IMG/VR virus record: IMGVR_UViG_3300046167_000585
Location: 3,310-67,309 of that record
DNA length: 64,000 nucleotides
Origin: a virus
Reading direction: 5' to 3' (one strand)
Shown here: piece by piece, positions 13,670-16,771 of the stretch
How positions within the stretch are numbered: the stretch's first letter is position 1
Layout: each line of letters starts with the position of its first letter
The notes under the pieces: generated by a model
The model's database searches: none
What the model saw: the letters and a program-made list of their open reading frames with translations, nothing else
What the model was told of the DNA's origin: nothing
Program-made: the position numbers and the translations under genes

Positions 13670-14137
13670 TTAATTAGCTAAAGGATTATCAAGGCTTTGT
13701 TGTATTCTAGTCATTAAGTCTTCTTTAGTCTTATCAACTTTAATTTCAAACCTATCTAGTTTAGTATCATAATTAGTTAACTTAGTATCTACTGATTGTA
13801 ACTTAGTGTCTACTTTTGACTCAAGATTCCATTGACTGTTACGAAGATCAGTCATATCTTTTTTAAGTTCTATTTTAATTGCGTTAGCATGTTCTTCTAT
13901 ACGTAGCACTTCAGAAGAAGTCTTTGCCATAGAAGCACTAATGTCTCCTAAGTCTAAATTTGCTAATGCTTCAACTTTTTGATACAAAAGAAAGCCACCA
14001 TACAGTGAACCTAATATTGTTGAAATTAAAGCAAACAATGCCATAATACTAGCCCAACTAAACTTAAAACCTTTTACTTTGATTTGTTTGTTAGGTAAGT
14101 CTTCAACTTCTTTAATCTTTTTTTCTAAATCATCCAT
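13670..14137 (-). CDS. Membrane-anchored coiled-coil protein (exported cassette gene 6)
   Basis: Single TM FSWASIMALFALISTILGSLYGGFLLY, then heptad repeats. Confidence 0.7.
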   Translation of the reverse strand: MDDLEKKIKEVEDLPNKQIKVKGFKFSWASIMALFALISTILGSLYGGFLLYQKVEALANLDLGDISASMAKTSSEVLRIEEHANAIKIELKKDMTDLRNSQWNLESKVDTKLQSVDTKLTNYDTKLDRFEIKVDKTKEDLMTRIQQSLDNPLAN

Positions 14138-14565
14138 TAGTTATCAAACTCCGTATTCGTTTGTAGAGCTTTTAATAATTCTATCTCTTGTCGTAACTTT
14201 TGTACTTCTAGTCTTCTACGTTGTAATTCTAACTGATACAGTGTGTTACAATTAATTCTTTCTTTTGGCGCATCTAACGGTATTATTATTCTAGCATAAA
14301 TACCTAAGTCTTTTGTTTGTGGGTTGTTAGGGTCTTCTGTACCAAGGATAGGAGCAACTGCGTTATTTACAATACCCGTCAAGCCAAATTCAAAATTCGT
14401 TGAACCGCCAATAGAATTAGTACAGTCCAGGTCTCCTGCTTTAATTCTATCCGTACCGTGACTACTACCACCACTAGGGAGTTGTAAGTTTAGAGAAGTA
14501 CTATTAGCTATTACTTGTGAACAACTCAACATCAATAATAAAAAACTTATTTGAATTTTGAGCAT
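14137..14565 (-). CDS. Signal-peptide protein with Cys pair and C-terminal coiled coil (cassette gene 5)
   Basis: N-terminal hydrophobic signal ending VIA; DLDC...RINC; LELQRRRLEVQKLRQEIELL. Confidence 0.65.
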   Translation of the reverse strand: MLKIQISFLLLMLSCSQVIANSTSLNLQLPSGGSSHGTDRIKAGDLDCTNSIGGSTNFEFGLTGIVNNAVAPILGTEDPNNPQTKDLGIYARIIIPLDAPKERINCNTLYQLELQRRRLEVQKLRQEIELLKALQTNTEFDN

Positions 14566-14921
14566 ATTCTTGTAGCTAGCAATGTTTGACTTTCACTGCT
14601 ACTCCTTAGTTTAGACAAAGAACATATATACCTTGCTCTTTTTATATTGTTTTCTGTAATGTAAACATCAAACTTAACCTCTTTTAAATAATCAAGAGGA
14701 ATAATTCGGTATGCTGTAACAAACGGAATTGGTTTCCAATCGTCAGAGAATACCCCTATTTCATAGTACCGTACATCTTCTCTTGAGTTCCAAAGCCTCA
14801 TAGTTGTTTTCTTTACATCATCTACACCTGATATTTCCCACTTTGGATAGGTAGGTGTCATTTCATGACTTAGCACTGCTCCGCTCAGCAGCAATAAACA
14901 TAATCCTATTGAGCCACGCAT
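14547..14921 (-). CDS. Exported small beta protein, PapD-N/pilus-chaperone-like (cassette gene 4)
   Basis: Signal peptide ending VLS-HEMTPTY; MRLWN...YYEIGVF...IPFVTAYRII pattern reminiscent of chaperone Ig domain; C-terminal Cys pair. Confidence 0.45.
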   Translation of the reverse strand: MRGSIGLCLLLLSGAVLSHEMTPTYPKWEISGVDDVKKTTMRLWNSREDVRYYEIGVFSDDWKPIPFVTAYRIIPLDYLKEVKFDVYITENNIKRARYICSLSKLRSSSESQTLLATRICSKFK

Positions 14922-15397
14922 TCAGCTAATACTACAGCTTTATATGCACCACCTGGGAAAGCTCTGTTACCACCATACACGGCTACAGACGTACTTTGAA
15001 ACCAAGCACTTCCTGCAACGCTCAGTGGATAAGAACGCATTGCACCAGTTGTAGTTGATGCTGCTTGATAACCAGACATTCCACTTTCACCATGTGCTTT
15101 AAGAGTTACAGCACCAGTCCAAGTTACATTATCTGATAACGATGGACTTGAGCTAAAGCTAGTCGGGTAAGTTATTTGTGCATAGTAAGCGTTAGCTAAC
15201 GTAGTATCAAATCTTATAACTGGTACTTGACCTGCACTAGCAGGGTCTGTTGTTAAAGTATAAGCGTTAGGGTTACCATATATTCCTGGTACAGTAGTTG
15301 CTACAGTACATCTGCTTTCAACAGTTCCATCGATATCTGCTGCTAATATTGGAGTTGCTGCCATTATTAGACCAAATGTTATTAGTAATTTTTTCAT
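14906..15397 (-). CDS. Exported pilin/fimbrial-subunit-like protein (cassette gene 3)
   Basis: Signal peptide MKKLLITFGLIMAATPILA; mature DIDGTVESRC; C-terminal FPGGAYKAVVLAEC resembles pilin terminal strand; Thr/Ser/Ala rich. Confidence 0.5.
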   Translation of the reverse strand: MKKLLITFGLIMAATPILAADIDGTVESRCTVATTVPGIYGNPNAYTLTTDPASAGQVPVIRFDTTLANAYYAQITYPTSFSSSPSLSDNVTWTGAVTLKAHGESGMSGYQAASTTTGAMRSYPLSVAGSAWFQSTSVAVYGGNRAFPGGAYKAVVLAECVAQ

Positions 15398-16284
15398 TGG
15401 TATTGCTCCTCTATCATAGTATTCATAAGTTTATCTTGTCCTAGACTCCTTAAAGCTTTTCTATTATCCACTATATCTTTATCTTTTAAAACAATAGATT
15501 CTCGGTATATCTTACCTGGGATAGTTGCAACATAATATGTATTAATATTTGTTGCTTGATTTATAACCTGTAATAATGCAGCTTGTGATACTTCATTTGC
15601 AATAGTAAGTGCATTTTCTGTAGCAGCTAAAAGAGATTCCATGTTTTCTTTATCTTCTGCTTCGTCTTCGTCTTCTTTAGCTTCTTCTTCTTCTTCTAAT
15701 AACTCTTTATCAGTTTCTGCTTGTGCAAGTTGAACTGATTCATCTTGTAACGCATCATAATCTGGTATATCAGGTATTGGGGGCGGTTTAGGTTTTACAT
15801 ACCCAGGACAGTTAGGGTCACTCTGTGGATCAAAACAAGGATCAAATCTATATATGTATCTAACATCTGCATTTTCTATACTGCCTGTGCCTTCTTGCTT
15901 AAGTCTGCCATCACCAAATACTGCGATAGGTGTATAAGGCAATGCAATTGTTCTTCTTATTTCTATACCACCTTCGCGTTGTGACCAGTCTTGTACGTCT
16001 TGAAACACATAACCACCACCTACTTTATCGTTTTCTAAAGTAACAATATAATTATCTTCTTTGTTTTTAATTGGTGTGTATTTGTAAGTAACACCTGATA
16101 TATCCATACCGCCAATACCATCAGCGCCTAAATAAATAGGTGTCATTGACCACTGTAAACCATTGATAGCTGCGTTAGGTGTGTAGCCGAATGTGTAGCT
16201 AAAAGAAGATAAAGGCAGCAGCAGCAGTACCCATAATGCTGAGAACCTTATCACGTTTTTCTTGTGCAGTAATTTCATCTTCAT
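15394..16284 (-). CDS. Exported protein with Cys/Pro hinge and acidic coiled tail (cassette gene 2); start uncertain
   Basis: Signal-like FSALWVLLLLPLSSFS; DPCFDPQSDPNCPGY; acidic run EEEEEAKEDEDEAED. Confidence 0.7.
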   Translation of the reverse strand: MKMKLLHKKNVIRFSALWVLLLLPLSSFSYTFGYTPNAAINGLQWSMTPIYLGADGIGGMDISGVTYKYTPIKNKEDNYIVTLENDKVGGGYVFQDVQDWSQREGGIEIRRTIALPYTPIAVFGDGRLKQEGTGSIENADVRYIYRFDPCFDPQSDPNCPGYVKPKPPPIPDIPDYDALQDESVQLAQAETDKELLEEEEEAKEDEDEAEDKENMESLLAATENALTIANEVSQAALLQVINQATNINTYYVATIPGKIYRESIVLKDKDIVDNRKALRSLGQDKLMNTMIEEQYQ

Positions 16285-16771
16285 CCTCTGGCATAGGTAT
16301 TAGGTCAGTTCTAACCTCCCATGCAGCTTTGGCTTCATTGCCTATTAAGCCATCTATTGGACAAGGAGTTCCTGCATCCATCATAGCTTGCCATACGTCT
16401 TTATCTTGGCACATTATTGATACTGCGGCTACTTTCATACCCATATCATATAATCTACCTGCTTTTTTTAATCTAAGACAATTCTCTTCAGTATAAGTAG
16501 CACCTAAACTTAAAGATAATATTTGTGTGCCTAAAGCACCACTAGAAGATATAGTACATAAATCAGAATTATTACCACCTACATTAGGTGATATAGCTGA
16601 AGGAGGAGGAGACTTAACTGTAGTCTCATTTGTACCTGTAGTTGTTACAGTAGATGTAGTGTTCTGTGTTATTGAGCTTTCATCTACTGCCATTACAGGT
16701 AATACAAAAATAATCCAAAAACATGCAACAATACTTAAAGCTATAACATTGTTGCGCAATCTGTTAGACAT
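16199..16771 (-). CDS. Exported Cys-containing protein with C-terminal hydrophobic anchor (cassette gene 1)
   Basis: Signal/TM N-terminus, Thr-rich linker, four Cys in mature region (DLC, ENC, MCQD, TPCP), C-terminal IMGTAAAAFIFF. Confidence 0.75.
   Translation of the reverse strand: MSNRLRNNVIALSIVACFWIIFVLPVMAVDESSITQNTTSTVTTTGTNETTVKSPPPSAISPNVGGNNSDLCTISSSGALGTQILSLSLGATYTEENCLRLKKAGRLYDMGMKVAAVSIMCQDKDVWQAMMDAGTPCPIDGLIGNEAKAAWEVRTDLIPMPEDEDEITAQEKRDKVLSIMGTAAAAFIFF

Follow-up and report, generated by a model that had tools for sequence, protein, structure and literature searches.

Why would a phage carry, between two of its virion genes, six consecutive genes whose products all appear to be destined for the cell envelope? 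The question arises from a 64,000-nt stretch of viral DNA, in the following called the window, which covers bases 3310–67309 of the 67,309-base IMG/VR record IMGVR_UViG_3300046167_000585. An initial annotation, made from the letters of the window, had placed six abutting or overlapping open reading frames (ORFs) between gp54-like and gp53-like genes, and we recovered exactly this arrangement on the minus strand at positions 13670–16771. We call this set the cassette and its genes, from the gp54-like side, A to F (Table 1). The evidence below points to a composite of two sub-modules, exchanged as one set between phage backbones, which we tentatively read as encoding a periplasm-spanning complex.

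Export or a membrane location is predicted for each of the six products. A hydropathy scan detected a strong N-terminal hydrophobic segment in 6/6 cassette genes, compared with 7 of the 83 other called genes (Fisher p = 3e-6). Alignments showed conserved cysteine pairs in A, B (C150/C159), C (C30/C160), D and E (C48/C106) and none in F. Both results bear out the initial annotation, which had noted a signal peptide or transmembrane (TM) segment in every gene and cysteine pairs in five. The cassette junctions consist of overlaps of 1–86 nt or a 2-nt gap. Because B overlaps A by 86 nt, its start codon is uncertain, and the ESM Atlas version of B begins at residue 47. Promoter-like and terminator-like sites within the cassette were not above shuffled expectation, which fits co-transcription with the late operon. 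The ratio of nonsynonymous to synonymous substitution rates (dN/dS) ranged from 0.07 to 0.36 across all six genes in comparisons with 7–8 diverged loci. These low values, together with the gene order described next, argue that the cassette genes are real.

Scanning IMG/VR with protein C yielded 62 loci with C identities of 52–94%, whose gene order was determined by tblastn and ORF clustering. In 38/38 loci with enough flanking sequence all six genes are present, with order and strand conserved, so that the co-occurrence proposed initially as a check was indeed found. The other 24 loci are cut by contig ends and keep the order in the retained part, with fragmented ORFs in L055; two complete loci, L026 and L060, have one extra small ORF between E and F. 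N4-like flanks surround the cassette in only 4 of the 62 loci (L001, L002, L009, L010). As the order is kept throughout but such flanks are rare, the set appears to move as a unit between backbones. Most numerous among the loci are those of a ~40-kb podovirus type whose TerL is nearest to those of Paracoccus, Rhizobium and Sulfitobacter podoviruses; others include the T7-like L044, which has a gene for an internal virion protein, and further types. Among 185,579 species genomes searched with the C profile we found three loci, all on contigs of metagenome-assembled genomes (MAGs) that carry cassette genes and are probably viral; the absence of A from one of them (L067) is due to the end of the contig. 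The cassette therefore appears to be confined to phages.

The set is not indivisible: the cassette is a composite of two sub-modules, A+B+F and C+D+E. The trio C-D-E occurs without A, B and F in a T7-like contig (L070; 52 kb, G+C 48%, E-like gene at 1.5e-14) and in eight records of T5-like Vibrio phages. In Vibrio phage Bennett (Thalassavirus), gp148, gp149 and gp150 are true homologues of C, D and E (hidden Markov model (HMM) E 1.2e-8, 2e-8 and 2.9e-14), with the same order, signal peptides and, in gp148, the same C-terminal motif as in C. They represent PHROGs 25895, 25455 and 37374, all annotated as hypothetical; C itself matches phrog_25895 and E matches phrog_37374 at 6e-6. Unlike the window phage, Bennett is a T5-like siphovirus of Vibrio that lacks A, B and F and has its trio two small genes upstream of a holin and an endolysin. 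Since the trio is present in cultured Vibrio phages, its function can be tested in a laboratory host.

Relatives of A and F, detected with HMMs built from the loci, occur together in four records: the Pelagibacter phages HTVC115P (A-like gp54, ~9e-51; F-like gp49, ~5e-22) and HTVC023P (gp45, ~3e-44; gp48, a weak match at 0.016 with the same layout, ending in DNPLAQ), the freshwater podovirus MW202481 (1e-43; an unannotated F-like ORF, 1.8e-9) and Roseobacter phage CRP-810 (gp53, 5e-22; gp51, 2.3e-7). The F-like proteins of all four end in an NPL motif. With the trio found alone and A and F found apart from it, the cassette can be written as A-B-[C-D-E]-F, and in HTVC115P other small genes occupy the slot that C-D-E fills in the window. 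A long secreted protein containing an acidic or Pro-rich spacer is the product of the gene that follows A in three of the four records (HTVC115P, HTVC023P and MW202481). The core domain of A, which matches phrog_20531 at 1.7e-13, is present in 13 phage records, including the Pelagibacter phages HTVC115P, HTVC023P, HTVC033P, HTVC202P, Mosig and Baldr and the Roseobacter phages CRP-207 and CRP-810.

Some genes in these records deserve separate mention. In CRP-810 (L065), gp51 (5219–5641), labelled 'lysozyme', is the F-like protein; it combines a TM segment with a coiled coil and has NPLGR at its end. A lipobox ORF at 3615–3875, just upstream of the A-like gp53, contains a partial A-type Cys domain (HMM E 6.8e-5). 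The gene after gp51 (5601–5894, E 6.8e-32) belongs to a small basic family of 86–91 amino acids (c34) that also follows F in several cassette lineages (L026, L036–L040). In MW202481 (L066), the F-like ORF (5236–5643, 135 amino acids) overlaps the end of a gene labelled 'transport protein tonB', which encodes a Cys- and Pro-rich secreted protein at the position of B.

The phage that carries the cassette belongs, by its PHROG matches and gene order, to the N4-like phages (Schitoviridae): its major capsid protein is ~50% identical to those of 476 N4-like records, a virion RNA polymerase, a portal protein and TerL (phrog_38) were recognized (Table 1), and the gene order agrees with that of Erwinia phage S6. 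The window has a G+C content of ~33%, and no tRNA genes were found in it. In S6, a gp54-like and a gp53-sized gene abut with zero genes between them; the cassette is therefore an insertion relative to S6, a comparison that involves this single cultured genome. The gp53-like protein shares position and size class with S6 gp082, with no BLAST match at 1e-3. The S6 comparison and the PHROG matches of the flanks thus support the initial view of a cassette inserted in the late structural operon of an N4-like phage.

This location could mean that the six products are virion or ejection proteins, packaged into the particle and delivered to the envelope during infection, with the hydrophobic N-termini serving as membrane-insertion segments. 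Beyond the gp54-like and gp53-like flanks, an internal virion protein gene (phrog_511) lies close by in the T7-like contigs L044 and L070. We nevertheless consider such a role highly unlikely. The N-termini look like cleavable signal peptides with Ala-x-Ala-like ends, the conserved disulfide pairs suit folding in the periplasm and the neighbours are not virion genes in most backbones; the Bennett trio is followed by genes for the holin, the endolysin, a phosphohydrolase and a DNA-binding protein.

The individual proteins (Table 1) gave few matches to known families. Pfam searches with the six proteins and their flanks returned no credible match, and NCBIfam returned none. Extending the Pfam search to all B and E members at E values up to 10 produced scattered noise, such as DUF4140 in 6/33 B members and ExbD in 3/28 E members (best E 0.0078). 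Sequence-profile searches of the PDB with all six families found nothing for A to E and coiled-coil noise for F. In the ESM Atlas, A and B matched the viral clusters of their own families, with no model, and for B no relatives beyond these clusters were detected in Pfam, PHROG, PDB-sequence or Atlas searches. A has four invariant Cys and a second hydrophobic stretch at its C-terminus. F homologues differ in the length of the coiled coil and range from 155 to 213 amino acids in total. In current databases the genes are labelled hypothetical, or mislabelled as 'OmpA family', 'tonB' or 'lysozyme'.

Table 1 Features of the window. The cassette genes are listed in order from A to F, followed by the flanking genes, the putative lysis module and other features mentioned in the text.
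Feature	Positions	Strand	Length (amino acids)	Characteristics
A	16199–16771	-	190	signal peptide or N-terminal anchor; Thr/Ser-rich stretch with invariant PPxxAIxP; four-Cys domain of ~80 amino acids; linker; short C-terminal hydrophobic tail
B	15394–16284	-	296	signal peptide; beta-rich N-domain of ~130 amino acids; C-x8-C loop; Pro-rich, then acidic linker; conserved C-terminal domain ending in QY
C	14906–15397	-	163	signal peptide; conserved unmodelled N-terminal peptide; Ig-like beta-sandwich (predicted); invariant G150/Y152/C160 near C-terminus
D	14547–14921	-	124	signal peptide; mature N-terminus HE(M/Q)TPTYP; single PapD-N/MSP-like Ig domain (predicted); C100-C120 pair
E	14137–14565	-	142	signal peptide; beta region rich in Gly, with two conserved Cys; charged coiled-coil helix at the C-terminus
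F	13670–14137	-	155	short cytoplasmic N-terminus; one TM segment (amino acids 28–46); periplasmic coiled coil; invariant C-terminal DNPL motif
gp54-like virion structural protein (upstream flank)	16771–17298	-		phrog_2050 at 2.1e-35; tblastn to Erwinia phage S6 gp083 at 4e-13
gp53-like large virion protein (downstream flank)	10593–13667	-	1024	phrog_2220 at 4.3e-50
c7, membrane protein of putative lysis module	26014–26202	-		HMM 3.4e-34
c6, membrane protein of putative lysis module	25456–25887	-		HMM 8.6e-76
c8, membrane protein of putative lysis module	24858–25454	-		HMM 9.5e-63
Major capsid protein	17979–19265			phrog_1357
Portal protein	20922–23061	-		phrog_1216; four consecutive ORFs
Virion RNA polymerase	1–4390	-		phrog_2206; at least two pieces
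ORF of family c9	61105–61710	+		HMM E 2.8e-52

The predicted architecture of F, an N-in TM segment followed by a periplasmic coiled coil, is that of an i-spanin, the inner-membrane partner in two-component spanins such as lambda Rz/Rz1. These systems share with the cassette a single-TM N-in protein with a conserved C-terminal docking peptide, disulfide-rich periplasmic partners, a complex predicted to span the periplasm and genes that usually lie beside those for holin and endolysin. They differ in having two proteins instead of six and a small Pro-rich outer-membrane lipoprotein as partner, which the cassette lacks. A lipobox scan of window positions 13000–17400 picked out A and E only, with Cys that are not conserved in homologues, and none was found at 23000–26400. 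Accordingly, we rejected A as a lipoprotein or unimolecular spanin and E, whose lipobox-like Cys is restricted to the lineage of the window, as a lipoprotein. Likewise, no candidate o-spanin with a lipobox and Pro-rich sequence was found in 10-kb windows of HTVC115P, HTVC023P and MW202481. In these three phages and in the scanned stretches of the window, the A/B/F triad could fill the o-spanin role.

Lysis genes recur around the cassette and its sub-modules. An identified holin, endolysin or spanin lies nearby in six of the ten contexts examined. In L044, the genes after F encode, in order, a TM protein, an Rz-like spanin (phrog_739) whose gene overlaps a lipobox ORF, and a GH108 endolysin. 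In the L041–L062 group, a member of the same Rz-like cluster (c40) or a Hydrolase_2 endolysin is one or two genes away, or ~2 kb in L054. In L070, C-D-E is preceded by an endolysin and by an Rz-like gene in which a lipobox and Pro-rich ORF is embedded (Rz/Rz1). In Bennett, gp148–150 are followed by the two small genes, the holin (phrog_860) and the endolysin; in HTVC023P, A, a 461-amino acid protein, gp47 and the F-like gp48 lead directly to a peptidase M15; and in MW202481, A, the 'tonB'-annotated protein, the F-like ORF and two further ORFs precede a lysozyme. In CRP-810 and HTVC115P, leaving aside the doubtful 'lysozyme' label, no gene in the vicinity is annotated for lysis. In the ~40-kb podovirus contigs, a trio of genes (c7-c6-c8) for proteins with TM segments by hydropathy scan, a putative lysis module, directly follows the cassette. 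The window has its own copy of this trio (24858–26202) after the tail-fibre genes, where N4 keeps its lysis genes. Of its members, c8 is a DUF1353 protein (4.8e-11), and c6 and c7 had no match to a holin or endolysin family in Pfam or NCBIfam. The idea that c6 is a three-TM holin of the gene transfer agent type was dropped after Pfam and an HMM comparison with a holin-like ORF of MW202481 did not confirm it.

We favour, as a tentative first choice, the interpretation that the cassette encodes a periplasm-spanning complex acting at lysis or egress, because all products are envelope-directed, F has the i-spanin layout and lysis genes recur as neighbours. Among the roles suggested initially, this one fits the genomic context best.

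Several observations weigh against it. L044 has a canonical two-component spanin (Rz plus lipobox ORF) in addition to the whole cassette, and L070 has one in addition to C-D-E, so that the cassette cannot simply be the spanin; with true spanins alongside it and no o-spanin of its own, it falls outside the definition of the two-component systems. F had no match to a spanin PHROG, and the PHROGs that it did match (~2e-3 to 8e-3) are of unknown function. The proteins at the position of B in the pelagiphages, considered as B homologues, were dropped, as they resemble B in layout only (C-terminal HMM E = 0.51). In the window the cassette lies ~8 kb from the putative lysis trio, with no adjacency, and c7, c6 and c8, its neighbours in the largest locus group, have no proven lysis function. 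Unrelated accessory genes commonly insert at the ends of tail-fibre and lysis operons, and adjacency to lysis genes may therefore reflect the site of insertion rather than function. Finally, four metatranscriptome libraries yielded short contigs with 90–100% identity to parts of the cassette, two error-free ones on gene C among them; these are compatible with transcription and are not proof of it, and stretches without cover carry no meaning. A false peak in RNA depth was seen at 15567–15717, the acidic low-complexity stretch of B, caused by many unrelated contigs with loose ends.

A rival reading is receptor masking or superinfection exclusion, in which the exported proteins would bind or cover an outer-membrane or periplasmic receptor and so block incoming phages or prevent the loss of progeny on debris. 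Llp of T5 and the Cor proteins act in this way. The predicted export of all six products would suit this role, as would the position of the cassette after the tail-fibre genes in many loci, where receptor-blocking genes are often found. Exchange among unrelated backbones that share c7-c6-c8 would be expected of a host-specific module, and the absence from cellular genomes, the three MAG contigs being probably viral, is in line with it. Known exclusion proteins, however, are single, small, fast-evolving and expressed early or from prophages, whereas the cassette comprises six strongly conserved genes (dN/dS ~0.1) in a late operon. The Bennett trio, moreover, lies beside a holin and an endolysin; the large gene upstream of it, gp147, belongs to phrog_10818, to which no function is assigned. 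Taken together, we think receptor masking unlikely.

The C-D-E sub-module raises a different comparison, namely with chaperone-usher systems (Fim, Pap, Caf, Csu), in which a periplasmic chaperone guides the assembly of immunoglobulin (Ig)-like pilins. In its predicted structure, D has the fold of chaperone domain 1 (PapD-N/MSP-like Ig) and C, modelled by AlphaFold2 with a pLDDT (predicted local distance difference test) of 87.8, is a small secreted Ig-like protein; their genes are adjacent like those of subunit and chaperone. The pilin-like motifs that the initial annotation had quoted for C are present. Residues 20–29 form a conserved, unmodelled N-terminal peptide with invariant G24, V26 and S28 ahead of the invariant C30, and together with G150/Y152 they probably resemble pilin hallmarks, the invariant Gly standing 14 residues from the C-terminus, a position characteristic of pilins. 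These terminal features keep the idea of strand complementation open.

The resemblance does not extend to the level of sequence. The top-ranking Foldseek matches of C were chaperone-usher pilins, with a fold match no better than that to many unrelated Ig domains, and a Foldseek search of BFVD with C gave no match at E 0.001 or better. An hhalign comparison of C with FimA/I/F/G reached 32.8% over 57 columns, the signal peptide among them. For D, the initial proposal of a single PapD-like chaperone Ig domain holds for the fold and not for family membership: hhalign gave a probability of 1.5% against 11 E. coli K-12 chaperones, there was no Pfam match, and the near-invariant Thr-Arg pair of the chaperone N-terminal strand has no counterpart. 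With ~105 mature residues D is a one-domain protein that lacks the second chaperone domain (PapD_C). As had been noted initially, an usher is missing: B is the largest cassette ORF, no usher-sized gene (~800 amino acids) is present in 38/38 complete loci, and Pfam found no usher among ten proteins including both flanks. The cassette thus lacks the defining components of a chaperone-usher system. Two longer relatives of D were rejected as evidence for interactions, both being artefactual: one is a D-E read-through that retains the signal peptide of E, the other a C/D chimera.

It is against this background that an usher-less, fimbria-like surface appendage has to be judged, in which C would polymerize by donor-strand exchange, D would act as its chaperone and E would replace the usher by oligomerizing into a pore in the outer membrane. 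The order of the genes, C-D-E, parallels that of subunit, chaperone and usher, and the fold of D and the alternating residues in the N-terminal peptide of C would suit such a device. A pore formed by E, on the other hand, found no support in the Pfam search of all E members or in the PDB sequence-profile search, and one lineage (L036–L040, and likewise L045) has a C with a lipobox (ending in LGITGC) and a short tether in place of the plain signal peptide. C would be a lipoprotein in the L036 group, which argues for retention in the envelope. With the missing usher and second chaperone domain and the low profile scores for C and D added, we regard a surface appendage as decidedly improbable. 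The remaining probability falls to roles that we have not thought of.

An usher is not required in every donor-strand system. A recent preprint describes the Enterococcus Elr/WxL system as an usher-free, chaperone-guided pilus assembled by donor-strand exchange, confined to Bacillota and anchored by sortase, with WxL-domain pilins and a membrane-anchored chaperone of the DUF916/DUF3324 type (bioRxiv 10.64898/2026.10.17.759780); D has no such Pfam matches. This precedent makes an usher-less polymer of C conceivable.

For the physical contacts, the timing of expression and the role of a periplasm-spanning complex at lysis or egress, we infer the following scheme. The six Sec-exported products would be made late, assemble across the periplasm and act on the host envelope around lysis or egress. 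F would be anchored in the inner membrane and cross the periplasm as a coiled coil, its DNPL tail presumably docking on a partner. The likely outer-side partners would be A, whose disulfide-rich domain is carried by a flexible Thr/Pro tether and whose C-terminus forms a hydrophobic tail, and B, a beta domain joined by a Pro-rich/acidic spacer to a conserved C-terminal domain. The second sub-module would add the Ig-like subunit C, the PapD/MSP-like D, which may hold or prime C, and the beta-plus-coiled-coil protein E. The lineage-specific lipoboxes, on C in the L036 group and on an A-type domain in CRP-810, suggest that these proteins stay at the membrane face and do not leave the cell. In the boldest version, which we consider a long shot, C polymerizes in the periplasm by donor-strand exchange primed by D, without an usher; the fibre stretches from the inner membrane, where F and A hold it, to the outer membrane, where E and B do, and its energy-free growth or collapse after the peptidoglycan has been cut helps to breach the outer membrane.

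The cassette and its families are widespread. Near-identical cassette DNA was found in 14 seawater or marine DNA runs from 11 studies, and the best-matching run may be the source sample. At 90% identity, the A family comprises at least 8000 metagenome clusters and the C family 1557 clusters; C had only 111 matches among 1.84 billion representatives. These cluster numbers and the presence of the A domain in HTVC023P indicate that the families are abundant in the ocean; the HTVC023P type is described by the authors of the HTVC023P paper as the most abundant known marine viral group (10.1101/2019.12.14.876532). Further scans had little yield: a metagenome scan with protein P0313 gave no match, viral scans with P0313, the E-like protein of L070 and Bennett gp148 returned the same or near-identical contigs, and tblastn of C and of the L070 E-like protein against phage records gave none. 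Two proteins matched by the C profile, P0308 and P0344, were discarded as spurious, both being helical repeats.

We found no published description of the cassette in the literature searched, which covered pelagiphages, N4-like phages, spanins, chaperone-usher systems and Thalassavirus and did not cover supplements. There is a real chance that it represents a categorically new kind of phage envelope- or lysis-associated machinery. If a role in lysis or egress is true, it bears on how dominant ocean phages in which no spanin was found open their host cells, and would affect models of viral carbon release. If C and D complement each other by strand exchange, chaperone-guided Ig polymerization would extend to viruses. 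A donor-strand polymer of C would be the first virus-encoded donor-strand-exchange machine and a new class of lysis or egress device, carried by some of the most abundant ocean phages as well as by culturable Vibrio phages.

Some features of the window lie outside the cassette. The gp53-like protein has three strongly hydrophobic segments in its C-terminal quarter (amino acids 829–899) and a long Gly-rich stretch. The breaks in the portal and virion RNA polymerase genes (Table 1) could be frameshifts from assembly or sequencing, or real. Family c9, to which one plus-strand ORF of the window belongs, is found repeated between the tail-fibre genes and the cassette in the podovirus contigs.

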